In this document: one piece after another, positions 1,092 to 50,483 of the stretch | Layout of the letters: each line of letters starts with the position of its first letter | Numbering within the stretch: position 1 is the stretch's first letter | Notes under the pieces: generated by a model | What the model saw: only the letters and a program-made list of their open reading frames with translations | Database searches by the model: none | What the model was told of the DNA's origin: nothing | Made by a program: the position numbers and the translations under genes | From: a phage | Direction: 5' to 3' (one strand) | Sequence record: PV636258.1 | Length of the DNA stretch: 64,000 nucleotides

Positions 1092-1141
1092 GATGTAGTA
1101 CCCGCTTTCAATTTGTGGCGTTGGCCAATGAATTACTGGGA

Positions 1142-15110: not shown

Positions 15111-15158
15111 AATGTAGTTCCTGCTTTTCAAGTTGGTGTCGTACTGCTTATGTTTAGA

Positions 15159-15186
15159 ATTATACGTGGGTTATTGAAGAAGTAAA
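15159..15186 (-). promoter_or_regulatory. sigma70-like early promoter TTTACTtcttcaataa...TATAAT
   Basis: minus strand TTTACTtcttcaataacccacgTATAAT immediately after hairpin 15187..15200. Confidence 0.5.
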
Positions 15187-15206
15187 GGGGCTTTTGCCCC
15201 TTTTAT
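15187..15206 (-). terminator. hairpin terminator ggggcttttgcccc
   Basis: perfect 5-bp GC stem with flanking A/T runs downstream of 15215..15853. Confidence 0.5.
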
Positions 15207-26858: not shown

Positions 26859-26859
26859 A

Positions 26860-27528: not shown

Positions 27529-27584
27529 AATATAGATCTCTCAAATAAAGGCGGTTTAATAATAACCGCCCTTGTATTATAGAA

Positions 27585-28376
27585 TTATTTTATATCACCG
27601 ACATACATGTTCAAACTTTCATCCCATTCTAAACGAACGCGGATGGTTCCGGAATCGTTAGGGAAAGACAACTTACTAGACATATGTTTGTTGGCATACG
27701 TTCCGCTCTTGTTTACAGGATAATCTTTACCTTCACCGATTGCGAATCGTTTGAAGTTCCGACTCACCATCATATTAATGTTAGGCCACTGCAATTGTTC
27801 CCGTAGGGTTTTGCACAATATAATCTTCCCATTAGACCGGAAAGACACGAATAAATCATTTGGTGAAGAAAATCGCCTTTCTTGCGGGCATAATTGCCTG
27901 ATTGAAATAAACTCAGATTCTTCTTTATTCTCAACTGGAGACTTCACGGGTTCTTCTTTTCGTTTTTCTGCATATTGCTCAACAGCCTTTTGGCTGATAG
28001 GCGGCAGATCAATAGAAGGGGAGATGACTGCGGGCTTAACGACTGGTGAAGTACGAGCGACTCGAAGTTTTTCCTGAGCCTCTAAAATCCTTTCTTGGCG
28101 GGTTTTGGGTTTAGTTTCAACCTTAGAGCTGAAATCGCAGACTGTAACCCAATCACCCTGATCATTGCGCTTGGCAACCAGAGTCAATTTATAGATGATG
28201 CCCTGCAGCTTGCTTTCGCGCATAGTATCTGCGAACCAGAAAGCGCAACCCTGCTCGAACTTTTCAGCGAAGATGACGCGCCCATCTTCGTGAATCAGAA
28301 TGACCTTTGCTTTGTTGGGTGCGAACATCTTATTCTTTTCAATGATCGATTCGGCGATCTTTTTGGTAATAATCAT
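27585..28376 (-). CDS. hypothetical protein (263 aa)
   Basis: ATG 28376. Confidence 0.6.
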   Translation of the reverse strand: MIITKKIAESIIEKNKMFAPNKAKVILIHEDGRVIFAEKFEQGCAFWFADTMRESKLQGIIYKLTLVAKRNDQGDWVTVCDFSSKVETKPKTRQERILEAQEKLRVARTSPVVKPAVISPSIDLPPISQKAVEQYAEKRKEEPVKSPVENKEESEFISIRQLCPQERRFSSPNDLFVSFRSNGKIILCKTLREQLQWPNINMMVSRNFKRFAIGEGKDYPVNKSGTYANKHMSSKLSFPNDSGTIRVRLEWDESLNMYVGDIK

Positions 28377-28426
28377 CACGAAGTATTTCCTTTCAGTTCA
28401 ATGGAAGTTAAATTTTAACCTGAAAA

Positions 28427-28747
28427 TTATCTTTGATTTCCAACGAAATTAGTTGCAATTTCACGGCACATAGTCAGATCTTTAATAGTCTGTTTGCTGT
28501 TGTCTGCGGCAGATTCCATCATAGATAAATCAAGCGCATTCTCTATCTGGTCCACACTATAGAGATCAAGGCGTTTCAATTCACCTTCATAATCAGATAA
28601 AAGAATTGATGTATCCTTATCATCCGGATGGAATTGTTGATATGTAGACAACCAAGCAGCACAAATATTCAACTTACTGGCCGGAGCTGCCAATACTTGG
28701 GAAGACATGAAAGTGCACAGGAATAACAATAAGATTTTGATTTTCAT
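28427..28747 (-). CDS. secreted protein with signal peptide (106 aa)
   Basis: MKIKILLLFLCTFMSSQVLAAP signal peptide; AAGGAG SD. Confidence 0.55.
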   Translation of the reverse strand: MKIKILLLFLCTFMSSQVLAAPASKLNICAAWLSTYQQFHPDDKDTSILLSDYEGELKRLDLYSVDQIENALDLSMMESAADNSKQTIKDLTMCREIATNFVGNQR

Positions 28748-29433
28748 CTTTCGTTCTCCTTCATCATATTATCACAGTCAATTCTTGTTTGCTTGAGTTC
28801 ACGGGAAAGCCTTGGATCATCAAGATTGACAGACAAATTAGTGGAAAGATCTTTCAAACCATTCTGAACACGGTCTTCATAATAATGATCATTTTCCACC
28901 AGCCATGCTCTCAGGCCAAGGGCGCGAGTCCGCCATTCCTTTTTCAAACGTCGATCAGATTCTTGATCAGCACTGTATTCAAATACTCGGATACATTGGT
29001 TGCCATCATTGATGAGATCCAGCTGACGTCGGCCAACCTGCACACCTTTTTGTAATGCTGGAGAAGGAAGAGAACGGCACTGTCTTACGGTCATTCGTCC
29101 TTGTGTGACCATACGACCAGTCATGATGAGATCGCCAGCCTCCATGCCTCCTCGGTTAAATTCTTCGTCGTTCATATATCCTTTCAGGTTGAATGCGCCT
29201 TGCTTATATCGATTAAACTCGATACCAGCATTTACAACGGCATCTGTGACATTACCTGTGGCCCAGAGTTCAGCAAAGTTCTCTATGGAACCAGTTTTGT
29301 CTATAGCCACGGCTTGGGAGAACCCAGCACAGTAGGAAAGATCAGACCACAGTTTTTCACCTGTGGAATTCAGCTTGGCTGTGGCAGGAAGTGCCAGACC
29401 AGCCAGCACAACCGCGATGATTAAACGTTTCAT
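28744..29433 (-). CDS. secreted/periplasmic protein with signal peptide (229 aa)
   Basis: MKRLIIAVVLAGLALPATA signal peptide from ATG 29433 with AAGGAG SD; early-type promoter upstream. Confidence 0.55.
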   Translation of the reverse strand: MKRLIIAVVLAGLALPATAKLNSTGEKLWSDLSYCAGFSQAVAIDKTGSIENFAELWATGNVTDAVVNAGIEFNRYKQGAFNLKGYMNDEEFNRGGMEAGDLIMTGRMVTQGRMTVRQCRSLPSPALQKGVQVGRRQLDLINDGNQCIRVFEYSADQESDRRLKKEWRTRALGLRAWLVENDHYYEDRVQNGLKDLSTNLSVNLDDPRLSRELKQTRIDCDNMMKENER

Positions 29434-29461
29434 GGTGATTCTCCTTATTTCATTGGATAAA

Positions 29462-29490
29462 ATGATAGGGCTGTCACCATGTTGAGTAAA
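29462..29490 (-). promoter_or_regulatory. sigma70-like early promoter TTTACT-N17-TATCAT
   Basis: minus strand TTTACTcaacatggtgacagcccTATCAT upstream of 29433. Confidence 0.35.
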
Positions 29491-29517
29491 GGGTTTCAAT
29501 AAACTATCGTATTCAGA

Positions 29518-29967
29518 TCAGTATCGACTATCACTGACCGTTCTGTATCGCACACCCTGAAACTGTTTAGCGAGTTTAACAAATTCCATCGCTGGCAAAT
29601 CAACTTTGTAGACCTTCATGCGCTGTTTGCCGTCCATGTTCAACGCAGCGACAAATCGGTGAGAACCGTCAACAACGTAATTGTCAGAAGACACCCAAAC
29701 TCGACCCATGGGCTTCTTATTTCTGATCTGCTTCATAATCTTCCAGACCTTCATTTTATTGATTTCGTTCTGGGTAAGACGAAGCATTTTGATAGGCACT
29801 TGCGCAGCATCTATAGACACGCCGTTGTCTTCAAGATATTTGTGAAAATCTTCTTGTTTGTCGGCATCGATTTGCGGCATCGAAGAACGAGAAAGCCCGA
29901 GGTTCCCAACAGGAATCCTCAGGCCATTTATGATATTCATCCAGTCAATAAAGGATGTAAGGAACAT
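29518..29967 (-). CDS. ParB/sulfiredoxin-like nuclease-domain protein
   Basis: YVVDGSHRFVAAL motif resembling ParB N-terminal DGHHR box. Confidence 0.5.
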   Translation of the reverse strand: MFLTSFIDWMNIINGLRIPVGNLGLSRSSMPQIDADKQEDFHKYLEDNGVSIDAAQVPIKMLRLTQNEINKMKVWKIMKQIRNKKPMGRVWVSSDNYVVDGSHRFVAALNMDGKQRMKVYKVDLPAMEFVKLAKQFQGVRYRTVSDSRY

Positions 29968-30004
29968 GACACACCTCGGGATATAGGGTTATCCCTTAGT
30001 TAGT

Positions 30005-30283
30005 TCATTCGGACTTAAACAGCAATTCGCGAACAGAAGTCCCAACGATATTCTGGGTGTTCAACAAACGAGTTAAATCATCCATGTCATATGCTGAATT
30101 GGTGATATGACGCAAGATAATCGCCAACATTCCCTCCAGCGCTCTCCGATTGTTATTCTCTTCAATGTCAAACTTAATTTCAACAAATCGAGATAGCATT
30201 CTGGATTGAGCATTTGTTTCGTTGGTTTTGCTCTGTATAATATCTTTGATTTCCGAACGAGCAATACTTCTTTGATCTGTCAT
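30005..30283 (-). CDS. hypothetical protein (92 aa)
   Basis: ATG 30283; hairpin+ATTTGAAA element directly upstream. Confidence 0.5.
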   Translation of the reverse strand: MTDQRSIARSEIKDIIQSKTNETNAQSRMLSRFVEIKFDIEENNNRRALEGMLAIILRHITNSAYDMDDLTRLLNTQNIVGTSVRELLFKSE

Positions 30284-30335
30284 GATATAGTTCCTTCATT
30301 TCAAATGGGCGGGGCAAAGATACCCCGCCGTGGGT

Positions 30336-30842
30336 TTATAGGGTAATAAGTGATACGGTAAAAACCATCGTCCCATCTGTTGCCATTTTTCTTGAAACTG
30401 GGAAGACGCGAGGCTGGCAGAATATCCATTCTTTCTCCATGGACGCCAAGTCCAGCATATCCATTTCTGATTCATCGTCTTTGTTCACAAATTTTTCTAG
30501 AGAACCAAAGACATTAAGCCCCTCTGGGAGTCCGTTTCGATGTTTGTAACAAATGCGAGCAACAGCTCTGGTTCCATACGATTTAGAAAATTGTTTGGCC
30601 ACATGCTTCAATTCACTGAAGCTGAGACAAGAATCCCATGTCTGGAACATGTCGCCTCGTTCAAACATCATCTCTAAACGCACAACGTCCTCTTTAGGCA
30701 ACCCACGATAAAGTGTGGTCATCTGCGGTTCGCGAAATTCTTGCACCAGATCACGGACGACAGGAGAAACAGTGCCAGGGCGCATAATATGGGACTTATC
30801 ATGGACGAGGTAAAATAAATCTTGAATTTGTTGATCGGTCAT
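30336..30842 (-). CDS. hypothetical protein (168 aa)
   Basis: ATG 30842 with AGGAA SD; hairpin+ATTTGAAA element upstream. Confidence 0.55.
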   Translation of the reverse strand: MTDQQIQDLFYLVHDKSHIMRPGTVSPVVRDLVQEFREPQMTTLYRGLPKEDVVRLEMMFERGDMFQTWDSCLSFSELKHVAKQFSKSYGTRAVARICYKHRNGLPEGLNVFGSLEKFVNKDDESEMDMLDLASMEKEWIFCQPRVFPVSRKMATDGTMVFTVSLITL

Positions 30843-30901
30843 GGTGTAGTTCCTGCATTTCAAATCGACGGGGTAATCATACCCCGCCCTAAGTTATAGA
30901 A

Positions 30902-31141
30902 TTAACTGACGTGCTTCAGAAGAGCGAAGAGGATCACGGCCTTGGCTTTCACCTTGCCGACGATGCCTGTCTCAACATCGACTTCTTCCGCAACCCACTC
31001 TTTACCCTTCTTGCTAATGATGACGTCGCGGCGCTGGACGTATACCTCTTTCGTCGCATACACACGACGGAACCCTTTAGCGCGGAGCAAGCCCCAATTA
31101 CGGTCAATCTCCACTGAAGTTTCTACCATTTTGTTCTTCAT
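30902..31141 (-). CDS. hypothetical protein (79 aa)
   Basis: ATG 31141; early promoter upstream. Confidence 0.5.
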   Translation of the reverse strand: MKNKMVETSVEIDRNWGLLRAKGFRRVYATKEVYVQRRDVIISKKGKEWVAEEVDVETGIVGKVKAKAVILFALLKHVS

Positions 31142-31192
31142 GATATAATCTTACCTTTCAACCTGGTGAACCCATCGTTCGCCAGTTATTGA

Positions 31193-31221
31193 ATAATACG
31201 CATTTGCCTTATAGAAGTAAA
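31193..31221 (-). promoter_or_regulatory. sigma70-like early promoter TTTACT-N17-TATTAT
   Basis: minus strand TTTACTtctataaggcaaatgcgTATTAT after hairpin 31237..31258. Confidence 0.4.
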
Positions 31222-31264
31222 CCCCTAAAAGTAAAAATCCCCAACGTTTGTTGGGGATCTTCAG

Positions 31265-31582
31265 TTACTTGCGCAGGGCAACGACGAGTTCAGCTAACTC
31301 TCCGAGGGTAGGATCATCTCCATGTTTACCCACCCACTCGTCACTAATTTCTACATCGTACTCTTCTTCGATTTCCATGACCAGCTCAATCATGTCAAGA
31401 TCGTCACCGCCGAGATCATTCTTAACCCGTAACGGCGCTAAAGCATCGATATTATCATCAATGTTATCAAACTTGTCCTTGTGATCCCCGTTGCGCCAAG
31501 TTTCCATGTTCAGGTTGTCACAAGCGTACTGAGCCAGAACACGCATTACTTCAACATAAGTTGGTTTGTTTGACATAAGCAT
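31265..31582 (-). CDS. acyl-carrier-protein-like protein with Asp in place of the phosphopantetheine-attachment Ser
   Basis: DLGGDDLDMIELVMEIEEEYDVEISDE aligns with ACP helix II ([27 protein letters not shown]); codons GAC GAT CTT GAC verified on the DNA. Confidence 0.7.
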   Translation of the reverse strand: MLMSNKPTYVEVMRVLAQYACDNLNMETWRNGDHKDKFDNIDDNIDALAPLRVKNDLGGDDLDMIELVMEIEEEYDVEISDEWVGKHGDDPTLGELAELVVALRK

Positions 31583-31619
31583 ATCTCAAAATGAAGGCGG
31601 GTTTCCCCGCCAGTTGAAT

Positions 31620-33836
31620 TTAGATTTTGACTTCTTTTTCAGCCAGTTCGGCAGTGACGGTGTATTTCACCCCATCAACTTCCACATCCATAGTGGATTC
31701 TTCCAAATCCAGGTCGGTAAACCAACCATGGCCTGCAACAATCCCATAAACTACCTTGGACAGCGTTTTGTTCAGGGCGCGGACTTCGTTGATAGCTGCT
31801 TTTGCTGCGTCTCCGATCCAACTTTCGATCAGCTTTTTCTGAGTCTCTTCCGGTACGCTGGTGATCATCGGTGATTTAACGAATGCATTGTATTCAGCCA
31901 GGGCATTAGCGATCAGCTGATCAGCGACATTCAGTTTTTTACCGTCCGTCTGTTTTTTGATAACAGACGCGATGCTCGGCAGTGAAGATGCGCCTTTGAT
32001 TTTCACATTCAATTCACGACTCATATAGACATCGGTTGATTCTACAGAAGAAGTCTTCGGTGAAAATCCATAGTCGCGAATGCCGTTTGCTGACAGGAAA
32101 TCAGCCGCTTCTTTGCCATATTTTGAAGCCAGACCAGTAGCGTTGCCTTTGCCAACCAGTTCATCACGGTAGAATTTCAGAACTTTCTGTTTTGCCTTCA
32201 ATGCTTCACGGCGCACATTGTCTGCAAAGAATTCAGCAGCACTGATATTCTTTGTCATGGCGCGGTTAACCATTGGGACACTTTCCAGATTTACAATGAA
32301 GACTTCCGGCCCACCAAACACATGAACACCCATGGCAGTCAAATCCTGTGCCACCTTAGCCCGAACAATCGGAGAATCTGCAGTGATAGGCATTGTTTTC
32401 AGGTTGATGATACCATCCTTGACAATAGTGTAATTACGATAACGCCAGGTTCCCAGCTCTTCAGGAAGTTCATATTTCTTCTGTACAAACTCAGGCACAA
32501 CAACCGTTCCGTGTTGAACTGTCTGCACACTGATGTTAGGACGTTCTGAATTATAGACCAAATTGCTGATCGGGACAATCCCTTTATCATCTGCTGGATT
32601 GAATTCGGGGGTCCAATCTTCGTGCTCGGCCAGTTTGAGCGCCAGGGCTTTACGCTCTTCTTTAGAAGTCGCATTCGCAATCTCTTCGGCCAACTTGTCT
32701 TCGGTGTCATCAACTTTCTGTACAGTACCGCGCCCAATGCTCTTGTAAGAGAATAGCGGATGCTTGGTGACGATAGAGACATCTGCTTCAGCCAGATACG
32801 TCAGAACATCAACAATGGTGGTGGCGTCTTCAGCCGGAACCATATTATAATCGATGCCATCAACTCCTCGCAGAGATTCGTCTACGATAGCCTGAGTCAG
32901 ATCGACTTTGATGTTGGAATAGTCCTGCTTGGTGAAACAGTTGCTGTATTGTTTGATGAAGCGGACGTCACCCGTCTTCTTCAGCGCGGCCCAGACCAAA
33001 TCGGCGTCCATGGTGTACACGCCATAGAATGCCAGCACGTATGCCGCCTGGGTGTCTGCCAGATTATCCAGCTGGTCGATCATGTTGGGGTTTACAACCC
33101 ACAGCTGAGAAACGCTTTCAGGGATGCTGACGTGGCCAATAGGGTGCTCTTCATCAGGATGCACGGCTAAAACAGTCGCCACACCATTTTCAACATAAAT
33201 GGCATGGGTGTAAACCAGGGGAACATCGACCACCACTTTCGGTGAAGAAGTTTTCAGCACGTTTTCCAATTCGGTCTGATATTCATTCTGGCCTTCGGCG
33301 AATACGTGGGTCGCACCAGAACGTTCTGCCATTAGCCCCAGCAGTTCGCGATTACAATACCAACCGTATTCGATGAAGGTAATGTTATCAAACGCTTTGG
33401 GCAGTACTTCAGCGGCATCCAGGATTTCATTAGAACGCCAGCAGTTGTCATATCCGTCGGTCATGAATGCCAGGTTATTAACATAACCAGGTTTATTCAG
33501 GCTAATGGCAGTTTCCGCAGCCAATTTCAGCGGCTCAACAAAACCAGTACAACCAGAAGGCTTCAGGAAACGGTCAATTAGATTATTGATCTCACTGAGA
33601 TCAGTTGCACTGTTAATCTGACGTCCGGCAAATACCGTTCCGAAATCACCGCGAGATGAAAAGTAAAGGATGCTCACAGTATCTTCCGGTTTCACCAGGG
33701 AAGGCAGGTTCTCCTTCAGATGCTTACGGACTTCTGGAAGTGAACGATACATGGAACCGGAGATATCCACAACGATTACATGGTTAGACGGCGCGACGGT
33801 CGCAACCGCATTCTTAAATGTTAATGATTCAATCAT
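31620..33836 (-). CDS. von Willebrand factor A-domain protein (738 aa)
   Basis: N-terminal vWA with MIDAS DISGS (VIVVDISGSM); long C-terminal region unassigned; ATG 33836 preferred to track start 33974 (TTG). Confidence 0.75.
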   Translation of the reverse strand: MIESLTFKNAVATVAPSNHVIVVDISGSMYRSLPEVRKHLKENLPSLVKPEDTVSILYFSSRGDFGTVFAGRQINSATDLSEINNLIDRFLKPSGCTGFVEPLKLAAETAISLNKPGYVNNLAFMTDGYDNCWRSNEILDAAEVLPKAFDNITFIEYGWYCNRELLGLMAERSGATHVFAEGQNEYQTELENVLKTSSPKVVVDVPLVYTHAIYVENGVATVLAVHPDEEHPIGHVSIPESVSQLWVVNPNMIDQLDNLADTQAAYVLAFYGVYTMDADLVWAALKKTGDVRFIKQYSNCFTKQDYSNIKVDLTQAIVDESLRGVDGIDYNMVPAEDATTIVDVLTYLAEADVSIVTKHPLFSYKSIGRGTVQKVDDTEDKLAEEIANATSKEERKALALKLAEHEDWTPEFNPADDKGIVPISNLVYNSERPNISVQTVQHGTVVVPEFVQKKYELPEELGTWRYRNYTIVKDGIINLKTMPITADSPIVRAKVAQDLTAMGVHVFGGPEVFIVNLESVPMVNRAMTKNISAAEFFADNVRREALKAKQKVLKFYRDELVGKGNATGLASKYGKEAADFLSANGIRDYGFSPKTSSVESTDVYMSRELNVKIKGASSLPSIASVIKKQTDGKKLNVADQLIANALAEYNAFVKSPMITSVPEETQKKLIESWIGDAAKAAINEVRALNKTLSKVVYGIVAGHGWFTDLDLEESTMDVEVDGVKYTVTAELAEKEVKI

Positions 33837-34005
33837 CGTTTTGACCTTTTTGGGCTTTGGAGTGTTTGGAGTTCGCGTCGGCGTTCTCCAGCATAGTTTC
33901 AATGAAATCCCGGTTGTTTTCCATTTGGGCGACCAGAACATCACTGGGACGGAATGAATTGTCAAGACAATCAAGTCCGGCGCGTTTTAATTTGTTGTCG
34001 GTCAT
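33829..34005 (-). CDS. small hypothetical protein (58 aa)
   Basis: ATG 34005 downstream of promoter-like TTGGCA...TATAAT; stop 2 nt before vWA ATG. Confidence 0.35.
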   Translation of the reverse strand: MTDNKLKRAGLDCLDNSFRPSDVLVAQMENNRDFIETMLENADANSKHSKAQKGQNDD

Positions 34006-34155
34006 CAGGCTCTCGTGAGTTATATTTCCCAACTATTTCAACATGGGACTATTATATTACGACAGGCGGTATTGATGCCAATTAATATAATAAAAATGCC
34101 CGATTGAATATAACCGGGCATTATATTATTGACAGGTTGAAATATTATTCAGAGC

Positions 34156-35028
34156 TTATTTAAAGGAGTCTACAATGGATTTGAAAATATAATCTTTGGA
34201 GCGTTGTTGTACCGGGAGTTCTCCATACGGAACCATGCAAGGGTGTTGCTTGGTCTGAGGGTCTTTGACTGGGCCATACACCCATCCCTCAGCCTCCTTC
34301 TCCGCCATCCAGCTCTCATGCGATTCGCTGGGCTTACGATCACCAGTGAGATGGAAGATAACACCTTTGCAAGCGCTCTCACGCTGCCAGGCCGGAGATT
34401 GTTCCCAAGGCAGTTGAGAGTCGTCACCAACAGACTTGCAGTATGCGCGGTTGGCTTCATGACAAATCTTGGCGATGCGCAGAACCAATGGCGAATAAGT
34501 GAGATTGAGTTTGGAGTTGGCGCGCAGGAAATCACTAACAGCCTTACGAGATTTGGCGTTGTGAGAGTCAACAACAAGTTCCATGTCATCCGGCCCACAA
34601 ACGAAAGACGCCAAGAAGCGCTCGCCATTTTCCGCTCTGAACATCACGTCCTGAATCATCACATTGAAGCCGAGGTGATAGGCCGGGCAGAGGGCGCTAC
34701 GTTCAACAGCGTATTGATCGATCCGGATCTCTGCCGTTTCCGTGGCTTTGGCCAACAGATCTTGTTCAACAAGCGCCCGGTACGCCTCCAGCTGCCACAG
34801 CTGGTCGAAGGTGTTATTGTAGGAAATCTCTTTGCCCAGGGCTTCATCGAAGTTGGCCGGGTCTATGGATGTGCTGGGCTTGGTGCCGTGAACGACGAAG
34901 CCGTTATCCATCTTGAAATGACAAGTGATAGCCCGGTGACCGCCGACTTCGCGGTCTTCGTAAATCACCTCAGCGATATGTGACTTCAGGACTTCAGGAG
35001 TGAGTTTGATGCCAGTACGAGTTGTCAT
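34156..35028 (-). CDS. RyR-domain protein (290 aa)
   Basis: C-terminal HESWMAEKEAEGWVYGPVKDPQTKQHPCMVPYGELP matches ryanodine-receptor (RyR) domain signature; AGGAT SD. Confidence 0.65.
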   Translation of the reverse strand: MTTRTGIKLTPEVLKSHIAEVIYEDREVGGHRAITCHFKMDNGFVVHGTKPSTSIDPANFDEALGKEISYNNTFDQLWQLEAYRALVEQDLLAKATETAEIRIDQYAVERSALCPAYHLGFNVMIQDVMFRAENGERFLASFVCGPDDMELVVDSHNAKSRKAVSDFLRANSKLNLTYSPLVLRIAKICHEANRAYCKSVGDDSQLPWEQSPAWQRESACKGVIFHLTGDRKPSESHESWMAEKEAEGWVYGPVKDPQTKQHPCMVPYGELPVQQRSKDYIFKSIVDSFK

Positions 35029-35036
35029 GTGTTATC

Positions 35037-35411
35037 CTATGATATTTGTTTACAGACCTCCACTACTTTACGGCACATGACGATATCGAACAAGCCGATA
35101 TGGCAATCGCGCTTCTTGATCCCCAGATTATGAGCCAGCCAGCTGTAAGCATCACTCCTGCTCCTCTGCCCACTTTTCCAGATAGGGTCAAACGACCTAT
35201 GAGCTTCCTGCTTAGCAGCACGGAGAGCGGCATTCGCCATCCTTCCCAGAGGTTGTCTACCATCCCCATGGGTATGGCAACCCACACGAGCGTCGCATGG
35301 CGAGCATCCCCAGAACTTCAGTTTGTGTAGATCTGGGCGATGAGGGTAGAGTACATCACCACTGACGTATTTGGCAGGAAGACCGCAATAATCACAAATA
35401 ACTTGTTTCAT
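35037..35411 (-). CDS. Cys-rich zinc-ribbon protein (124 aa)
   Basis: CDYCG...CSPCDARVGCHTH cysteine cluster. Confidence 0.55.
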   Translation of the reverse strand: MKQVICDYCGLPAKYVSGDVLYPHRPDLHKLKFWGCSPCDARVGCHTHGDGRQPLGRMANAALRAAKQEAHRSFDPIWKSGQRSRSDAYSWLAHNLGIKKRDCHIGLFDIVMCRKVVEVCKQIS

Positions 35412-35422
35412 ATTCTTTACCT

Positions 35423-35447
35423 AAAAGAAACCCCGCACACGGCGGGG
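35423..35447 (-). terminator. rho-independent terminator
   Basis: hairpin ccccgc/gcgggg followed by TTTCTTTT on minus strand. Confidence 0.55.
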
Positions 35448-35470
35448 TTGCTCAGGCCGGAGCCGACAGA

Positions 35471-35842
35471 TTATTTCAGGAGTTTTTCCAGTTCTTCAAC
35501 AGAGAGACCTTCCAGTTCCTGCTGTTTCTTACGCTGGATCAGTTCCATGATCGCCTGGTTATTCGCTTTACGTTCGGCGGCGGTTGCGCTTTCGTCACGT
35601 TCTTTCAGTTTAACACCGATGATCGCTTTCACGATATCGAAACGCAGTTGTAACTGAGAGTCGACTGCGCTTTTCACGCCGATGAAATCTTCTTCATCGC
35701 TGGCGGCTTCCTTCACCTGACGGCTGAGGTCTTTCGCCAGTTCGTTTAGGGCATTCAGGTTCAGATCCCAAACCTGCTCAACAGACAGCAGACCTTTGTT
35801 AGAGTTGAAACGCAGTTTTAAACGGGTTGCTTGATCAAACAT
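35471..35842 (-). CDS. hypothetical coiled-coil protein (123 aa)
   Basis: ATG 35842 with AAGGAA SD. Confidence 0.55.
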   Translation of the reverse strand: MFDQATRLKLRFNSNKGLLSVEQVWDLNLNALNELAKDLSRQVKEAASDEEDFIGVKSAVDSQLQLRFDIVKAIIGVKLKERDESATAAERKANNQAIMELIQRKKQQELEGLSVEELEKLLK

Positions 35843-35880
35843 TTCTTTGTTCCTTATTACGAATTTGTGGTCAAAATCAA

Positions 35881-37899
35881 TTAGAAAATGACTTTTACAG
35901 TACGGTTAAACGCGCCGGACACTTTGACGAACACGTGGTTGCGTTGCGTCGTTGAGAATCCCAGACCGGACAGTTGGTTTTCATTCGGCTGGACTTTCAT
36001 TTTACTACCCAACATTTCAAAAACCTTACGATGTTTATCCAGTTCTGGCTTCAGATATTCGTTGTAGAAACCACGAGTACCTTCAGGATTAGCACAGCCT
36101 TCAAGAATGAAGAACACGTGCTTGTTACCAGTTTGCTCCCCATCCCAATGGTTTGGTGAATTCAGGACCAGCTGTACTTTCTGGAAGGTCGCAGTCTTGA
36201 TACCCCAAACTTCTTTAGACTTATCAACATTAGCCAGTTCGGACTTAATGCCAACAACTTGTTTGTCTTTAACAGTCAGGATGACTGCAGTGATACGCCC
36301 CTGATCTTTCAGGCCAGGATGGCTGAAACGATGCGTTGCGCCTTTGTATTCTACTTCGACTTCAAACCCTTCGTCGATTTTTTCACGTTGATTGTAGTTG
36401 TGGATTTCGAAACGGTATTCACCATCGCGCAGCTTGCTTTCATCTGTAAAGATGATATTTTCCACCGGAGCGCGGTTTGGATCAATACCATCCATACCGT
36501 TCATATCGATATCCAGATGGGCACCTGTCATAGAGCGGCGATCGCGGAAGTAAACGTGCTCCATGTTGTTGAACATATGCAGATCGAGGTCGTCGTTATT
36601 GTGCCACGCCAAGGAAACGCGCAGATACCCGTCAACTTTACCACCAGCAGCCTTTACACGTTCTTTAATGGAATCGGTCACTTCACCGTTGTAAGACCAG
36701 GAGAAACCGTTGTTCCACTTGAACAGGTTAGGCGCATCTGGGTTCGCCGGAGCAACCAGGGACATCAGGTTGCTAGTGTGAGAATTCTCTACAAGCACTT
36801 CCATTGAATGCGCTTTTGGCAGAACATTGCTCAGGAAATCATCAACGCTGATCTCTTCAACTTTTTCCAGGGACTTGGTCGGAGTTTTCACTTCGGCGGC
36901 CAGCTGAGCAAACGGATCCATCGCTTTCTGAGCAGCCAGGTCGGCAAACAGAACGTTGTTGATGGTCAGATCATCGTAAACCGCATAACGACGCGCCAGT
37001 GAGTCTTCCAAACCCAGAGCAATAACTTCTTTCTGAGCGTTTTCGATCATGGATTTTGAAACCAGCGCTGTCGGACGTTTGTAGTTCGCCGGAGCAACTT
37101 TGGATTCAAACGATTTAACAGCCTTTTCCAGTTCCACGCCTTCGCTGATATCTGTCAGCAGAGTGCCGATAACTGTGTTACGGATGCCGTGTGGAACATG
37201 ATTGTTTGAACGGTATCCAGTATGCCATGCCCAAAGAGAACGGGCTGATTCGGGGACTTGTTCATATGCCTTTTTGGTTTCAACAAATCCCTTCACTGCT
37301 GCTTTGTGTTCTGCGCCGCGATACAGAGAATTCTGGTCAATCAGTTCCAGAACGATTTCAGCTGATTCCAGAGTAATTTCACGCAGACCGCGTTCAAACA
37401 ATTCAATAGCCTGGCGGATTTCACCTTTTTTCGAAGCGATTGCGTCCGGACGCAGAACATAGCTACCAAGTAATTGGGTATGGAAATGATTGTAAGTACG
37501 GATTTTGCCATCTTCACCAGATTCGTGATTGTGAGACAGGCCGACTTTGGCAGAATCGTTAAAATAAACATCGACGATTGCGTGTTGTTTGACATAAGCG
37601 GAAAGAGCCGCAGCCACCACGTCATATTCATTACCCAGATCAATGTTGTCCCAGATGGAAATCACGTTCAGCTCTGAATCGATGGTGACAACACCGCCGA
37701 TGTTACGGATGAATTGTTTACAGCAGGTGCAATCGTGTTCAGTACGTTCGCGGTACAGCGGGTTAGTACCAGCAGGGAAAGATGCCAGATACAGATCCCA
37801 AAGAGCATCTTTATCGATATTGGTCATGAACAGACCAGTTGCGGACATCGCCAGCACGTTGTTATTAACTGCCGTTGCGAAGGGTTTGAATTCTGCCAT
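35881..37899 (-). CDS. large hypothetical protein (672 aa)
   Basis: ATG 37899 with AGGAAG SD; no family-B polymerase, P-loop or other recognisable motif. Confidence 0.7.
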   Translation of the reverse strand: MAEFKPFATAVNNNVLAMSATGLFMTNIDKDALWDLYLASFPAGTNPLYRERTEHDCTCCKQFIRNIGGVVTIDSELNVISIWDNIDLGNEYDVVAAALSAYVKQHAIVDVYFNDSAKVGLSHNHESGEDGKIRTYNHFHTQLLGSYVLRPDAIASKKGEIRQAIELFERGLREITLESAEIVLELIDQNSLYRGAEHKAAVKGFVETKKAYEQVPESARSLWAWHTGYRSNNHVPHGIRNTVIGTLLTDISEGVELEKAVKSFESKVAPANYKRPTALVSKSMIENAQKEVIALGLEDSLARRYAVYDDLTINNVLFADLAAQKAMDPFAQLAAEVKTPTKSLEKVEEISVDDFLSNVLPKAHSMEVLVENSHTSNLMSLVAPANPDAPNLFKWNNGFSWSYNGEVTDSIKERVKAAGGKVDGYLRVSLAWHNNDDLDLHMFNNMEHVYFRDRRSMTGAHLDIDMNGMDGIDPNRAPVENIIFTDESKLRDGEYRFEIHNYNQREKIDEGFEVEVEYKGATHRFSHPGLKDQGRITAVILTVKDKQVVGIKSELANVDKSKEVWGIKTATFQKVQLVLNSPNHWDGEQTGNKHVFFILEGCANPEGTRGFYNEYLKPELDKHRKVFEMLGSKMKVQPNENQLSGLGFSTTQRNHVFVKVSGAFNRTVKVIF

Positions 37900-38018
37900 G
37901 GTATAGTCTTCCTGTTTCAGTTCAAATGTGCGCCCCGTTTGCCAGGGCGCTTCGTTTAAGTGAGGTCAATAATACGTTGAAAAGAGTTATTGAAGAATGA
38001 AGTAAAGGGAATCTTTAT

Positions 38019-38243
38019 TCAGACGATCTTACCGCCGTCACAAGGCCGAGTATCACCGGAGTTGTATGCCAGCATCCCCTGCTTCATCAAACGTCTCGGC
38101 CCAGAAACTGATTTCTGTTTCCTCAGCGTGTTGCAAAACCGAGTATTGCCTGGGTAAGGAGTGTACACGAGACGTCCTTCCATACGGGCTTTCAGAAGAA
38201 ACTCATCAGTCGCTTTACACAGTTTGAACAATTTCCAGCTCAT
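38019..38243 (-). CDS. hypothetical protein (74 aa)
   Basis: ATG 38243, ATGA overlap with HNH gene stop. Confidence 0.4.
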   Translation of the reverse strand: MSWKLFKLCKATDEFLLKARMEGRLVYTPYPGNTRFCNTLRKQKSVSGPRRLMKQGMLAYNSGDTRPCDGGKIV

Positions 38244-39169
38244 TTTTCACCCTTGTATCTTTTTAACCATTTTACGCATTTTAATGGTTCCCAGCCTTTA
38301 TTGAAACGTTCGATTATCCCACTGGTGGCATTAAACGCCTTCAGATCTTTTGTTCCATACACGAACAAGAGGGCTTCTGAACGTTTCATCGTATTCAGGG
38401 CTTCAAGGAATTGATCAGCTTTCTCCCAATATACGTCATTGTCGGGGTTCCATTTACCCTTCTCCCAAGGCATCTTAGCCAACATGCCTTTCTGAGCGTT
38501 TTCTTTCTGTTTGGCGCGTTGCTCTGGTGTGAATGAGTTGGTTAAGTCCTTCCCATAATTGGGATTGAGTTCCCCAAGTTTAGCTTTCCTGGCACGTTCA
38601 GAAAATTGTTCTAAATCCATGTTGGCGCGGCGTTTCTCTAAAACCCGCCTTTTATATTCAGGATCAGAAGCCATCCTTTCATGGATTTTCATCAATCCTT
38701 TGGTAATTTTCTTGACTTGCTCTGGAGTTCTCTTATACCCATATTGGGGATTATTCTTTCCTCTTCTCCCATACATTGGGTTGTTTGCCCCGACGCATTT
38801 AGAGACACCCTTTGTGAGTTTGGATATTCTTTGTCCAAATTCTTTCCTTAACTTTTCGTAAAGGTGAGAATTAAATTTTATGCCCGTTGGTGTATACCTA
38901 CCCCCACGGCTCATCAAAAGAACAGCATATACCATATCAGAATTCGGGAAAGCCAAGGCCAAACACACATGGGCAAGATAATGTTGCCTGCCAGTAAGTC
39001 TTGCCAAATTGATCTTGTCTTTGGAATATTCAGGGAACATGCTCTTGGGAAGGATGTGGTGTAATTCGGTGTAGTCACCATCAGGATATTTGAAAGATTG
39101 AATCATCCTCAAATACTTCTTGATAAAATGCGGTTTACCGCCTTTAGAAATCAATAATTCGTAAAACAT
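38240..39169 (-). CDS. HNH homing endonuclease with NUMOD-like repeats (free-standing)
   Basis: ELHHILPK...HYLAH His-Me finger motif; repeated NPMYG/NPQYG/NPNYG motifs; GGAG SD. Confidence 0.7.
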   Translation of the reverse strand: MFYELLISKGGKPHFIKKYLRMIQSFKYPDGDYTELHHILPKSMFPEYSKDKINLARLTGRQHYLAHVCLALAFPNSDMVYAVLLMSRGGRYTPTGIKFNSHLYEKLRKEFGQRISKLTKGVSKCVGANNPMYGRRGKNNPQYGYKRTPEQVKKITKGLMKIHERMASDPEYKRRVLEKRRANMDLEQFSERARKAKLGELNPNYGKDLTNSFTPEQRAKQKENAQKGMLAKMPWEKGKWNPDNDVYWEKADQFLEALNTMKRSEALLFVYGTKDLKAFNATSGIIERFNKGWEPLKCVKWLKRYKGEK

Positions 39170-39228
39170 AACAGGAACTCCAAATGAAAGTTCCTGTTAT
39201 AATATACTTTCTTAACTCACAAAGTAAG

Positions 39229-40431
39229 TTACTTTTTAAATAAATTTAGTAGGTTTTTAGAACCAGATGTCGTCGCTTTAGGTTGTCCTTCCCCATCGTA
39301 TCCAACCTTCCCGCGCGGTTTTTTACCTTGCTGTAAAGCCTCTACACAACGGGTGTATTTCTGAAGTTCACAAAACATATTTTCTCCTGCCATTATATTT
39401 AAATGGTGATCCCAAGGCTCTTCCGCAGACCAAAATTCTTCCCTGTTATACCCAAGAGGACCATAAACTGCGTCCTGATTATCCCGTAGCCAGAATATGC
39501 ATTCTTCATGAGTCATGCCGTCCTTATCCAGGAACATCAGGTCAATACCCGCACGGCAACCTGGACCAGCGATAGTGAAATGATTCTCACTGAATGGATA
39601 CTCAGGGATGTATGTGAAGTCCACCCAGATCTGATATGCCAGGAATGGCCCAAGCCCCTCAATGTCGTCATACATCGCCTGGTAAACAGAGTCGGGACGG
39701 CTAAATTCCCTGAGGCGATCAAAGTAATGAGGGTGTTTGTTGACGAATGCCTTCAAAGAGCGGATGACTCGCATTGGCATGTACGGCTCCCAACCCTCAA
39801 TCGTGTACTCCCCAGGATTCTCTTCAACCAGCTTCTTGGCGACCTTGTAATCCAATTCATCCACGACACCCTGGCCAACACGGTGTACCTTAACCATCAT
39901 GCCACCGAAGCGCTGCTCCTTGTGGTTGACAACCAGCTCAGGAAAAGCCAGGCATTGCTTCAGACCGCCCGTGTTGAAGGCATTGGTGAATACCTTACCA
40001 CCGTCGGCCTCGAACTTCTGAAGACGGGCGCGGGTCTCGTCCAGGTTGATTTTAGCAAAGTCTGAAATCGTCATAGCGCCCTCGAGCGCCACCTTGATCG
40101 GATCCCAGAGATTGAACATGCGGAACAGAACACAGTTGAACATTTTGTCGGCCATGCTCAGAGCGTCGTTCTTGACGATGTTGTTGATCAGGTTGAGGGA
40201 CTGCCTGTCGTGCTCTCTCCGGACGTTACAGAACTTGACCTGCCGTAGTATAGGATTATTCGTCCAAGGAGCAGGAAGACGCTGGACGTCCTTCTTGACG
40301 TGGATCTGGTAACGATCGTGCATCCATTCGTAAGACCACTTTACAATCTGCTGGTCCAGGACGGGTTTGGCAGATTTAATTTTAGCTTCCCGAACACCGC
40401 AATAAGGAATGTCACACGGTTTATCTTTCAT
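39229..40431 (-). CDS. hypothetical protein (400 aa)
   Basis: ATG 40431 with GAGGAT SD; own terminator upstream; no motif recognised. Confidence 0.65.
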   Translation of the reverse strand: MKDKPCDIPYCGVREAKIKSAKPVLDQQIVKWSYEWMHDRYQIHVKKDVQRLPAPWTNNPILRQVKFCNVRREHDRQSLNLINNIVKNDALSMADKMFNCVLFRMFNLWDPIKVALEGAMTISDFAKINLDETRARLQKFEADGGKVFTNAFNTGGLKQCLAFPELVVNHKEQRFGGMMVKVHRVGQGVVDELDYKVAKKLVEENPGEYTIEGWEPYMPMRVIRSLKAFVNKHPHYFDRLREFSRPDSVYQAMYDDIEGLGPFLAYQIWVDFTYIPEYPFSENHFTIAGPGCRAGIDLMFLDKDGMTHEECIFWLRDNQDAVYGPLGYNREEFWSAEEPWDHHLNIMAGENMFCELQKYTRCVEALQQGKKPRGKVGYDGEGQPKATTSGSKNLLNLFKK

Positions 40432-40448
40432 GGTATCCTCTCTAGAAT

Positions 40449-40477
40449 ACAAAAACAGAGGCCATTATAGCCTCTGT
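40449..40477 (-). terminator. rho-independent terminator
   Basis: hairpin cagagg/cctctg followed by TTTTTG on minus strand. Confidence 0.55.
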
Positions 40478-40500
40478 TGTTTAGTGAATAACGGATTATA

Positions 40501-41370
40501 TTAATCGAAGCGAGAGAGGTGTGTCACAGTGTTTTGAACAGGTGCGCACGCGTATACGCGAACATTAGCACCCCACACCCCACACAGCTTAGGCATATTG
40601 GTATCGTTAATGATATACGCTGGCACATAACTTTCAATTTGGCCGTTAACATCTACGGGTCGAGAAGATTTTTCAACTGCCATAGAAAGAATTACTTCCA
40701 ACGTTTTTGGAGATACCAATGCCACGCCGTTCAGATCATCAACAAATACCTGTCCTTCTTCAATTGCCATGCTGACAACGATGTCATTGATCTGACGGGA
40801 AGGGGTATTCGTCAGCATATCAGAGAAATCAGGCTCTTTGAACACAGCCATGTTTTTCAGGAATTTTCCTTTCGGATATTCTTTGCCATTCCACATCACA
40901 GTCTCATTCACTTTGATGCATGCCTGAGGGAATTCACCTTCAACGCGTAACTGGCCAACTGGGAAACCGCGTGAATAATAATATTCCAGTGCCGGACCGA
41001 CTTCATCTTCAGAGCGAATAAATTTGCTCATGTTGGAGGCATAAACACGCTGCAAGCACTCATCGCCGTTGAAACCAGCAATGTGTGCCACGCCGTCATT
41101 GACTGTTGTGATGTCGCCCTGAGCGTCCAAAATCTGGCGCATAATGTCTTTGATGTCGACAACAGCAGGTTCTTTCAGGACTCGCGGAGATGCAGTGAAC
41201 TCAATTTTCACCTCGTGGTCGAAATAAGCCGCTTCCAGTAATTCGCGGGTCTCTTCCAGAACCAGTTTGGCCTGATTGCGAATTTTACCGAAGTCAGGGG
41301 CTGTAATATCTCCAGCCGCATTACCAAAAGCCAAATTCAATCTCACGTTTTTATTAAATGTAGTTGTCAT
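40501..41370 (-). CDS. hypothetical protein (289 aa)
   Basis: ATG 41370 with TGGAG SD; follows regA. Confidence 0.6.
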   Translation of the reverse strand: MTTTFNKNVRLNLAFGNAAGDITAPDFGKIRNQAKLVLEETRELLEAAYFDHEVKIEFTASPRVLKEPAVVDIKDIMRQILDAQGDITTVNDGVAHIAGFNGDECLQRVYASNMSKFIRSEDEVGPALEYYYSRGFPVGQLRVEGEFPQACIKVNETVMWNGKEYPKGKFLKNMAVFKEPDFSDMLTNTPSRQINDIVVSMAIEEGQVFVDDLNGVALVSPKTLEVILSMAVEKSSRPVDVNGQIESYVPAYIINDTNMPKLCGVWGANVRVYACAPVQNTVTHLSRFD

Positions 41371-41386
41371 AATATAGCGACTCCAG

Positions 41387-41782
41387 TTATTCGCTTTTTG
41401 CCCGACTTGGGCGAATAGTGTATTTTGGAACCAATTTCCACTCAGAAACTTGGTCATGTTTTACAACTTTGATCCGAGACATGTCAGCCACTTCGGTTAT
41501 TTGTTCCGGATGCAAGATCTTAACCATATTCCATTGCTCCAGAAGCCGTATAATCCGATTCATACGCAGGACATCTTCACGCGTAAAGCCGTTGTAGTGC
41601 CCATCTAGCATGAACAAATGCTTGAAATGCACGATGTGATATCTGCCAAATTTATGCAGAATATGGCACGTTTGATACAAGGTGTTAGGCTCTTGACGAG
41701 TGTTAACCCCTATCCGACTCAGCGTTTCCTTGATACCCAGGAAAATCCCTGGTTTGTCTTGGTTCAATTGAACTTCAACCAT
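41387..41782 (-). CDS. regA: translational repressor RegA
   Basis: LYQTCHILHKFG...HFKH...EWKLVPKYTI closely parallels T4 RegA; start at internal ATG 41782. Confidence 0.8.
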   Translation of the reverse strand: MVEVQLNQDKPGIFLGIKETLSRIGVNTRQEPNTLYQTCHILHKFGRYHIVHFKHLFMLDGHYNGFTREDVLRMNRIIRLLEQWNMVKILHPEQITEVADMSRIKVVKHDQVSEWKLVPKYTIRPSRAKSE

Positions 41783-41880
41783 ACAGTCAACAATGCTGGC
41801 CTCATCGTTGACAGCTGAAAGTTTTAAGATGTCCAGCGTATTACGCGCCATGACTCATACCCCTTTAACAATTATTTGAA

Positions 41881-42303
41881 TTACTTAGCCTTGCGCGGTT
41901 TGGCTTTTTCGTTGCTGTTGGAACGTTCGACCTTCGCCTTGATTTCAGCCAGGACTTCTTTCGGCAGGAATCGAACATATTCTGAAGCCTTTTCAGGACT
42001 GATGTAATAATACTCAGAAATCAATTTTACATCAGGATCCATAGCTCCCTTCTTAGACCACTTGTCATAGCGACGTTTTGCCGGAATGCTATGAAACGCC
42101 AGGTTCCATTGCATCCAAGGAGTAATGGCATGGAAGCGGTTCATTTGTTCAGCAACCACAAGCGTGTCTTTACTCTGAGCAAGGCCGCGCCGAGTCATGA
42201 AAGGATCAAATGCCTTTCTGATTTCGGGGTCTTCGGTCATCAACAGATTCTCTTTGGTGCTATTCAACGCACCGAGGTAATCGAACAGTGACGGAGCGGC
42301 CAT
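41881..42303 (-). CDS. 62: clamp-loader small subunit (gp62-like)
   Basis: position between 44 and regA; IPAKRRYDKWSKK resembles T4 gp62 VPRGKRYGKWAK. Confidence 0.65.
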   Translation of the reverse strand: MAAPSLFDYLGALNSTKENLLMTEDPEIRKAFDPFMTRRGLAQSKDTLVVAEQMNRFHAITPWMQWNLAFHSIPAKRRYDKWSKKGAMDPDVKLISEYYYISPEKASEYVRFLPKEVLAEIKAKVERSNSNEKAKPRKAK

Positions 42304-42307
42304 AATA

Positions 42308-43297
42308 TTACTTCCATTTGATGTTGAGCATGACGTTAGTCAAGAAGTAAACGCCGTGTAACCAGACGTCGCCGACGGAACGATGTTCAATCTGAGACTG
42401 ACCACAGACACATACCAGATCAGGGATTGACTCTTTTTGAATCAAAGGAGCCTTTTCCTTGTTCTGGGGAACGCAGAAATGGAAGAAACGGGAATAAAAA
42501 TCTTCAGTGATGTAGTTTTGGTTGTCGGTCACCCACTGCTTCATCCCAGCCCAATCATTGGTTTTCAGGAAATCAACCAACGCTTGGAATTCCCCTGCTT
42601 TAACCTGTGCCAGAGCGCGTTCATCGATTTTACCAAACGTGGTGGCATTATCCTGAAGAGTTCCCATAATTTTGCGATTATCTGGGAAATATGATTTCAC
42701 AATGGAAGCAATTACACCAGCTTCATACGGAATACCTTCCTCTGTCAGGATAGTTGCGCAACGACGCATGAATTGGAGTTTAACTTCATCTGCTTCCTTT
42801 TCGGACCAGATAAAATCAATTTCACGACAGCGGGAACGCAGAGGTTCGTTAACGCGCTGTTTCGCATTAGTCGTCAGGATGAAGGAGCAGTTTTTGGAGA
42901 CTTTCTCTACGATGCCTTTCAGGGATTCCTGCGCCGCCATGGAAAGTCGCTCAACTTCATCGAGGATAACGACTTTGCGGCCACCGAAAACACTGACGCC
43001 AGTTGCGTATTGAATAACACGGTCACGGATGACATCAATGCTGTTATCCAGTGACGCATTGATCATCAACGGTTTGATGCAACCGATTTCGTTACACACA
43101 GCCAGAGCAGAAGTAGTCTTGCCCGTACCAGGCTGAGGGGAATAGAACAGCATTGAGGGGATGTTTCCATTGCCTGATGTAACATAGCCATGGATTTTTG
43201 CACGGACGTCTGAAGGGAGGACGATCTCATCCAGATTGTCAGGGCGATATTTGTTTTCCCACGCGTATTGATCTGTGACGATAGTGATGTTAGACAT
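42308..43297 (-). CDS. 44: clamp-loader large subunit, AAA+ ATPase (gp44-like)
   Basis: Walker A PQPGTGKTT, Walker B ILDEVE, SRC-like motif SRC (PLRSRCREI). Confidence 0.9.
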   Translation of the reverse strand: MSNITIVTDQYAWENKYRPDNLDEIVLPSDVRAKIHGYVTSGNGNIPSMLFYSPQPGTGKTTSALAVCNEIGCIKPLMINASLDNSIDVIRDRVIQYATGVSVFGGRKVVILDEVERLSMAAQESLKGIVEKVSKNCSFILTTNAKQRVNEPLRSRCREIDFIWSEKEADEVKLQFMRRCATILTEEGIPYEAGVIASIVKSYFPDNRKIMGTLQDNATTFGKIDERALAQVKAGEFQALVDFLKTNDWAGMKQWVTDNQNYITEDFYSRFFHFCVPQNKEKAPLIQKESIPDLVCVCGQSQIEHRSVGDVWLHGVYFLTNVMLNIKWK

Positions 43298-43375
43298 TGC
43301 AGCCTCTTTAGATAAAACGTTTCAAAGGGCGGGGAAACCCCCGCCACCGATAATAAAGCGCCGAATCGTTATTGA

Positions 43376-44748: not shown

Positions 44749-44753
44749 AATAG

Positions 44754-50415: not shown

Positions 50416-50483
50416 GTTATAGTCCTCTATTTGTAGGGGTTGGGTATGATTTTAACATACCCGTTCAAATGGTTTAGAACAAA

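Follow-up and report, generated by a model that had tools for sequence, protein, structure and literature searches.

Repeated hairpin cassettes resembling PeSLs at gene junctions in the early/middle region of a Kuttervirus

We analysed a 64,000-nucleotide stretch of phage DNA (record PV636258.1; here called the window), in which a GC-rich hairpin followed by an ATTTGA-type tail stands immediately upstream of six start codons, at positions 27528, 30283, 30842, 31582, 37899 and 43297 (sites A to F). These six sites are probably copies of a compact regulatory cassette, repeated through the early/middle genes of an Ackermannviridae phage and similar to the PeSL elements of T4-like phages. A sequence-only reading had offered three explanations for the repeated architecture: a terminator-plus-promoter cassette, an RNA processing site, or a binding site for a phage regulator such as RegA. 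We found that the first fits best, although the promoter-like parts lie elsewhere than had been implied. The link between the cassettes and gene shuffling, which is PeSL-like behaviour, was absent from that reading.

The window belongs to a Kuttervirus (Ackermannviridae; ViI-like) that shares 99.5–99.6% identity with Salmonella phage Chennai (MN953776.1); the first window position falls on position 85261 of the Chennai record. Motif counts relative to gene starts were made on the complete Chennai genome with its 205 annotated coding sequences, the one that runs across the record origin being left out. Comparative loci were anchored on proteins and drawn from IMG/VR contigs and phage records; the exact full-leader pattern matched only 8 Kuttervirus-sized contigs in IMG/VR and was too strict to be used instead. 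All six sites lie within the minus-strand early/middle region, which holds the replication genes and numerous small genes of unknown function.

Anatomy and placement of the cassettes

A GC hairpin is present just upstream of each of the six starts, on the minus (coding) strand (Table 1). The stem described earlier, GGCGGGG/CCCCGCC, is found at four sites; site A has GGGCGG/CCGCC and site E has GCGCCC/GGGCGC. Likewise, the tail ATTTGA(A/G)A is exact at sites A, B and C, and the remaining three carry one-off variants: ATTTTGAGA at D, ATTTGAAC at E and CTTTGAAA at F. The (A)TTTGA tail begins 1–2 nt past the stem. Its distance to the ATG, given before as 15–25 nt, measures 1–22 nt, and the acyl-carrier-protein gene behind site D probably starts at 31576 rather than 31582, judging by the Chennai annotation and the orthologs. 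All six cassettes are squeezed into the 30–95 nt from the preceding stop codon to the next ATG, with 6–30 nt between stop codon and hairpin at four sites. At five of the six, a conserved box, a -10-like hexamer, the hairpin and a leader are packed inside 56–95 nt.

Table 1. Positions in the window of the six sites and of related features (aa, amino acids; ORF, open reading frame; SD, Shine–Dalgarno sequence)
Feature	Position	Strand	Context	Parts
Cassette A	27529..27584	-	before gene 26860-27528	box TTCTATAA 27577-27584; hairpin 27547-27573; TATTAT in loop 27559-27564, 12 nt past box; tail ATTTGAGA 27539-27546; leader GAGAGATCTATATT 27529-27542
Cassette B	30284..30343	-	before 92-aa gene 30005-30283; overlaps one copy of direct repeat D1	degenerate box CCCTATAA; hairpin 30308-30329, loop TATCTT; tail ATTTGAAA 30299-30306; leader GAAGGAACTATATC 30284-30297
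Cassette C	30843..30901	-	before 168-aa gene 30336-30842	box TTCTATAA 30894-30901; hairpin 30867-30888; TATGAT in loop 30876-30881, 12 nt past box; tail ATTTGAAA 30858-30865; leader GCAGGAACTACACC 30843-30856
Site D	31583..31611	-	before acyl-carrier-protein gene 31265-31576/31582	hairpin 31596-31611 (GGCGGGgaaaCCCGCC); tail TTCATTTTGAGA
Cassette E	37900..37994	-	before 672-aa gene 35881-37899	box TTCAATAA 37987-37994; TATTAT 37969-37974 (N12); hairpin 37930-37950; tail ATTTGAAC 37920-37927; leader CAGGAAGACTATACC 37900-37914
Cassette F	43298..43376	-	junction of sliding-clamp gene and clamp-loader gene (42308-43297)	box ATCAATAA 43369-43376; TATTAT 43350-43355 (N13); hairpin 43328-43345, 4 nt past hexamer; tail CTTTGAAA 43320-43327; SD AAAGAGG
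Direct repeat D1, copy 1	30272..30336	-		65 nt, 82% identical to 30831-30895
Direct repeat D1, copy 2	30831..30895	-	D1 pair flanks the 168-aa ORF	spacing 559 nt
Hairpin with perfect TATAAT at apex	40454..40478	-	22 nt 5' of gene 39229-40431	apex AACAGAGGCTAtaaTGGCCTCTGTT; tail TTTGTATTC
Hairpin with TAAAAT at apex	50442..50462	-	26 nt 5' of gene 50098-50415	leader GAGGACTATAAC
Hairpin-less CTAYAYY-ATG leaders	1089..1098, 1580-1589, 41368-41377, 50946-50955, 52115-52124	-	at starts
Early-promoter cassette	15108..15203	-	no ATTTGA at hairpin foot	terminator hairpin 15184-15203
RegA homolog	41387..41851	-	translational repressor family	Pfam Translat_reg PF01818, E=4.1e-35, full length

The composite of hairpin and tail is far more frequent than expected and is tightly placed. 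The pattern GGCGG-N5-16-CCGYC-N0-6-TTTGA has 5 matches in the window against 0.03 expected, all five on the minus strand and before start codons. Across the Chennai genome, hairpin plus TTTGA was counted 9 times in intergenic DNA, and 9/9 are oriented with a start codon 13–60 nt downstream; a further 9 matches, with weak stems, fall within the 145 kb of coding DNA and are taken to be chance. These counts bear out the positional bias relative to start codons on which the sequence-only reading had staked its motif. By itself ATTTGARA is weakly enriched (18 window matches against 11.0 expected) and was dropped as a stand-alone signal, since the signal resides in the composite with the hairpin. 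Predicted folding energies at five sites are -16 to -19 kcal/mol, with z-scores of -2.5 to -4.2, and the leader downstream of the hairpin is predicted to be unstructured. Rfam covariance models gave no match at or near any gathering score across 26000-45000.

The sequence-only reading implied a promoter at or 3' of ATTTGAAA; the promoter-like parts are instead found in the hairpin itself or 5' of it. At five of the six sites a box, [A/T]TC[A/T]ATAA, precedes a TATAAT-like hexamer by 12–13 nt, with a spacing of N12 at A, C and E and of N13 at F and at B, where the elements are degenerate. The hexamers match TATAAT at 4–6 of 6 positions. They lie within the hairpin loop at A, B and C, and 5' of the hairpin at F (by 4 nt) and E (by 18 nt).

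Both elements stand out across the genome. TTCAATAA is the most frequent intergenic 8-mer, occurring in 18 intergenic regions and 15-fold enriched. The distance from box to hexamer (TATAAT matched at 5 or more of 6 positions) has a sharp peak at 12 nt, which accounts for 10 of 21 intergenic cases, and a second group at 6 nt consists of early promoters of the form TTTACTTC-TTCAATAA-N6-TATAAT. Hairpins carrying a TATAAT-like hexamer at the apex, at the same threshold, number 13/74 when intergenic DNA is read forward, 3/90 when it is read in reverse and 15/507 in coding DNA; 2000 shuffles gave 2.2 ± 1.4 and never more than 8, so that the observed 13 is about 6-fold above expectation. Two further examples of such hairpins are listed in Table 1.

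The last part, the translation-initiation leader AGGAaCTAYAYC-ATG, is conserved at sites A, B, C and E. TAYAYY stands immediately 5' of the ATG in 20 of the 205 Chennai genes (0.4 expected), and CTAYAYYATG has 11 matches in the window (0.72 expected), each of which lies on the minus strand and either coincides with a start or shares its frame. With a weight matrix over positions -16 to -1 (consensus AAGGAGGAACTATATC), the ten top-scoring matches in the genome all fall at annotated starts. Most leader copies have (T)TGAA 3–8 nt 5' of the SD; many other leaders of the genome read TTTGAGG, a T-run joined to the SD. The conserved leader also follows strong early promoters at places where its foot carries no hairpin (15108-15203, 1089, 1580), which indicates that the SD part is a separate, widely used translation-initiation module.

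Conservation and gene replacement

The cassettes are conserved well beyond the window, in several genera of the Ackermannviridae. Cassette A is retained in 9 Kuttervirus contigs, with either TTCTATAA or TTCAATAA as its box. We aligned 20 sequences of cassette C, including Taipeivirus and Limestonevirus. In all 20, GGGGTATGAT, CCCG, ATTTGA and the loop TATGAT are invariant, and variation is free in the 5 nt that separate the box from the stem and in the single nucleotide that separates the stem from ATTTGA. A plain terminator does not predict such constraint on a loop. In 18 of these sequences ATTTGA lies 18–20 nt from the ATG, in two contigs 12 nt, and its distance to CTAYAYC ranges from 3 to 13 nt; its position is tied to the foot of the hairpin and not to the ATG.

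Sites E and F were compared in the same way. The alignment of cassette F, which covers five genera and 21 IMG/VR contigs, retains the hexamer and shows three different stem sequences that form the same G-then-C hairpin, with TTTGA invariant directly after it. At cassette E, about 20 contigs retain the box-N12(±1)-hexamer arrangement around a divergent spacer; stem and loop sequences vary yet still pair, and TTTGAACTGAAACAGGAAGACTAYAYC is invariant.

Gene replacement is seen most directly at cassettes B and C. The region 29950-31700 is hypervariable (41 of 278 matching phage records cover at least 80% of it), and the flanking genes have no Pfam match there. It contains direct repeat D1, the largest direct repeat in 26–45 kb, which spans the hairpin, ATTTGAAA, the leader, the ATG and the initial 11 nt of coding sequence. 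In phage aagejoakim, homology to the window stops 5 nt inside the ORF behind cassette C (30837) and restarts in the leader of cassette B (30298); between these points aagejoakim has denV where the window has the 168-aa ORF and the second cassette. In ECML-4 and two other loci (L059, L061) the 168-aa ORF is absent, and one chimeric cassette stands directly 5' of the 92-aa gene. Across the 20 genomes, cassette C is fused to four unrelated proteins, of 168 aa, 151 aa (denV), 122 aa (with a hydrophobic N-terminus) and 92 aa, and in one genome to an 8-codon remnant. At site A the cassette is constant, with divergent alleles of the downstream gene mixed among phages. Three of the six sites abut homology breaks relative to ECML-4, for which we claim no significance since breaks favour gene boundaries anyway. 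We propose that near-identical stretches of 50–65 nt at many gene junctions allow homologous recombination and modular exchange.

Further differences between relatives lie next to these elements. Relative to ECML-4, a homing endonuclease gene and a 74-aa ORF (38019-39293, about 1.27 kb) are inserted in the interval that separates gene 39229-40431 from the cassette E promoter box. Around 51285-52117 the window exceeds Chennai (136563-137003) by about 374 nt and has an additional 124-aa ORF (51285-51659); this variable spot adjoins the leader-class starts 50946 and 52115. In LIMEstone1 (L005, 800-830), L033 and L034, an inserted stretch before gene 44 ends in AAACTATATCATGGGAATTCATA-ATG; it has the appearance of a residual leader-class start that does not share the frame of gene 44, much like a scar left by recombination.

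Possible function and alternative readings

The closest known relatives of this architecture are the PeSLs of phages RB49 and phi1. There, the order is stop codon, AT-rich stretch, -35, a polyG...polyC stem-loop, SD and ATG, with the stem-loop mostly between -35 and -10 or overlapping the -10; promoter and terminator activity have been demonstrated, and recombination has been mapped to the interval of -10, SD and ATG, where it gives insertions, deletions, replacements and mini-circles (Arbiol 2010, PMC2839356). PeSLs were later extended to the PST/T4 and nt-1/KVP40 groups, including a 'PmSL' on Mot-box middle promoters (Comeau 2014, PMC4122927). The Kuttervirus cassettes share the order of parts, with a stem-loop of a G-run and a C-run between promoter elements or overlapping the -10, followed by SD and ATG. 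They also share the numerous near-identical copies per genome in early hypervariable regions beside small genes of unknown function, the different genes carried behind one cassette in related phages, the crossovers between hairpin and ATG, and the cassette-ORF-cassette layout alongside a single chimeric cassette in relatives. They differ in belonging to Ackermannviridae and not Straboviridae, in lacking a sigma-70-type -35, and in having an TTCAATAA-type box 12 nt from the hexamer, an arrangement nearer the nt-1 'PmSL'. The invariant ATTTGA at the hairpin foot and the longer CTAYAYC-ATG leader are also peculiar to them, and their promoter and terminator activities, demonstrated for PeSLs, are here inferred from sequence. 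Motif anatomy, placement before start codons, conservation across genera and gene replacement at a cassette are what the sequences show directly.

The box and hexamer also recall the MotA-dependent middle promoters of T4, which have an 8-nt box at -30, 12 ± 1 bp from TAnnnT, without a usable -35, and which are likewise located before replication and early-middle genes. The sequence of the box is different: TTCAATAA as against (t/a)(t/a)TGCTT(t/c)A in T4, and the consensus TGCTTtA was not matched by the [A/T]TC[A/T]ATAA boxes. No activator is known for the ViI-like box, and ViI-like phages have been reported to lack both MotA and AsiA (CBA120 paper, PMC3184105).

If the sites are PeSL-like cassettes, RNA reading through from the upstream gene would meet a hairpin and short U-tail that may act as a leaky terminator or attenuator and protect the 3' end. 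The embedded or adjacent promoter would then restart transcription for the next gene, with the new transcript starting in the 3' arm or bearing the hairpin near its 5' end. An unstructured AU-rich leader with an AAGGA-type SD and a CUAYAYC spacer would give strong, independent translation of the first cistron. Homologous recombination between cassette copies would insert, delete or replace the genes behind them.

A number of observations weigh against this view. Site D has neither box nor -10-like hexamer nor CTAYAYC leader. No acceptable -35 hexamer lies 16–18 bp from a -10-like hexamer at any of the six sites, and a sigma-70 scan called none of the six a promoter; sigma-70 alone may not use them. 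Five of the six sites also fail the standard terminator rule of at least 5 U in the 8 nt after the stem, the U-tail being three U's only, 1–2 nt off the stem. Site D, the most terminator-like of the six, is the single site that passes the terminator scan on the coding strand (31596-31611); the other sites read NAUUUGA. At E and F the hairpin lies 3' of the conserved promoter-like element, where an efficient terminator would abort the cassette's own transcripts. In the cassette C alignment 179 of 180 stem cells are paired and one pair has double changes in favour of the stem, but covariation is weak to modest because the sequences are nearly invariant. The invariance of ATTTGA across genera exceeds what a generic U-tract explains, and might just as well reflect RNase cleavage, protein binding or enhanced translation at this segment. 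Detailed evidence of gene replacement comes from a single locus, and we found no mapping of transcription start sites or 3' ends in the literature on Ackermannviridae.

If the hairpins were ordinary intrinsic terminators beside ordinary ribosome-binding sites, TTTGA would be the end of a T-tract running into a purine-rich SD, and the rest coincidence or shared ancestry. The GC-rich stems of 6–10 bp, the short loops, the following U's and the closeness to the preceding stop codon at four sites agree with this, the orthologous hairpins are labelled terminators in the LIMEstone1 and Magnus records, TTTGAGG is common in other leaders, and TTGAAA is merely 2-fold enriched in intergenic DNA. We nevertheless consider it unlikely, given the short, displaced U-tails and the failures of the terminator rule. 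Terminators do not constrain their loops, and here the TATGAT loop and ATTTGA are invariant across genera with variable neighbours. The 6-fold apex enrichment of -10-like hexamers, the box at a fixed 12 nt and the two hairpins that follow a promoter-like element at E and F also argue against it.

ATTTGA keeps a fixed distance to the hairpin, but not to the ATG or a predicted start site. Such placement would suit an RNA processing or stability module, in which host RNase E or a phage endonuclease cuts single-stranded AUUUGAA and the hairpin protects the upstream 3' end, or at E and F stabilises the 5' end of a new mRNA. RNase E prefers AU-rich single strands beside stem-loops, and mRNAs of E. 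coli and T4 gain stability from a stem-loop at their 5' end. The segment is predicted to be single-stranded and is AU-rich, and the site F hairpin begins approximately where the conserved TATTAT would start transcription. The nucleotide before AUUU varies (G/T/C/A), a poor match to an RAUUW-type RNase E consensus, and the box and hexamer are left unexplained; we regard this module as rather improbable. The Chennai record does label gene 141 (15853-16470, minus strand) a 'RegB endoribonuclease', and Pfam gave only a marginal transglycosylase SLT match for it (E=1.6e-4). With the RegB label unsupported, we built no explanation on RegB cleavage.

That RegA might bind the leaders was a legitimate suggestion, as the window encodes a full-length RegA homolog (Table 1). 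It is Chennai gene 174, labelled 'hypothetical protein', its ECML-4 ortholog is annotated RegA, and it lies directly 3' of the clamp-loader genes, as in T4, where regA follows genes 44 and 62. The homolog might bind the conserved leaders. The segment ATTTGAA...AGGAaCTAYAYC-AUG would then be its operator, used to shut off the translation of early mRNAs. T4 RegA binds the translation-initiation regions of many early mRNAs, from the SD to just past the AUG, and some 20 mostly small early genes here have 12–25 nt around the AUG in common. The known RegA sites of T4 are rich in A/U and show little conservation, and CUAYAYC does not resemble them. Moreover, genes 44, 45 and regA, the classical targets, have no CTAYAYC leader here. 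The leader does resemble strong phage ribosome-binding sites, which would explain its conservation without a repressor, and we hold the operator reading to be improbable.

Finally, it is very improbable that ATTTGAAA acts as a promoter element, as a -35 or MotA-like box paired with a -10 at CTATAT, in spite of the 5/6 match of TTGAAA to TTGACA and the 'putative middle promoter' label on TGA...CTATAT before gene 44 in the LIMEstone1 record: the TTGAAA-TATATC spacing is about 9 nt, no -10 lies 17 nt downstream, the downstream genes differ, the ATTTGA-CTAYAYC distance is not constant, and a -10 adjoining the ATG would give a transcript without SD that starts inside the ORF, so we reject it. The geometry does not support that LIMEstone1 label, and promoters were annotated there by pattern matching to T4 consensus sequences (PMC3296691) and in the AG3 paper by consensus matching only. 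A sigma-32-like reading (CTTGAAA...CCCCAT) was ruled out by inspection, as CCCCAT is missing downstream.

Related signals and meaning for the family

Several signals elsewhere in the genome touch on the same elements. Strong early-promoter cassettes across the Chennai genome use the T-tail of a terminator as -35 (CCCCTTTACTTC), followed by TTCAATAA-N6-TATAAT (in the window at 15184-15203, 1656-1678 and 51003-51031); TTCAATAA is thus shared between the spacer of early promoters and the position near -30 of the N12 class. In the cassette at 15108..15203 the order is terminator T-tail serving as -35 (TTTACT), TTCAATAA-N6-TATAAT, a leader ending in CTTGAAAAGCAGGAACTACATT, and ATG. Before gene 7839-8327, tandem in-frame leaders, CTACATT-ATG and TTACATC-ATG, stand 15 nt apart at 8327-8349; either the true start is 8342 or the leader has been duplicated. 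A different, late-promoter-like motif, CTAAATAcccc, is also common, with 16 of 21 genomic CTAAATA copies intergenic (7200-7230 and 49435-49460 in the window; 9894-9930, 21878-21904 and 32745-32772 in Chennai). CTAAATA is often the 5' arm of an 11–14 bp inverted repeat whose 3' arm (GGGGTATTT) ends 1–4 nt before the ATG, an arrangement suggestive of a folded late leader in which the ribosome-binding site may be hidden.

In the CBA120 paper, early and middle promoters were reported as not identifiable (PMC3184105). Our search of the literature on Ackermannviridae transcription, the TTCAATAA box and PeSLs outside T4-like phages returned generic promoter-prediction statements only, and no prior description of PeSL-type cassettes in Ackermannviridae was found. 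It is conceivable, though we think it unlikely, that the cassettes reveal an undescribed middle-transcription system common to the family. The MotA/AsiA-like geometry of an TTCAATAA-type box, 12 ± 1 bp and a -10, in phages without a recognisable MotA or AsiA, would imply a phage activator of another kind, and the presence of TTCAATAA in the early-promoter spacer means that one factor could switch early promoters off and middle promoters on. If so, control would be exerted a second time after transcription, at the invariant ATTTGA/CTAYAYC leader, for example by the RegA homolog.

The best-supported reading is that the Kuttervirus elements extend PeSL-type cassettes to a family with poorly defined regulatory signals. 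For ViI-like phages, whose early and middle signals had not been identified before (PMC3184105) and which are widely used in biocontrol of Salmonella, E. coli O157 and Dickeya, the cassettes offer a testable grammar of box-N12-hexamer, hairpin, ATTTGA and CTAYAYC leader. In phage engineering they may serve as natural insertion points and portable expression signals. They also suggest that PeSL-type gene shuffling operates outside the T4-like family, which would explain the swapping of accessory genes of the denV type at fixed junctions.

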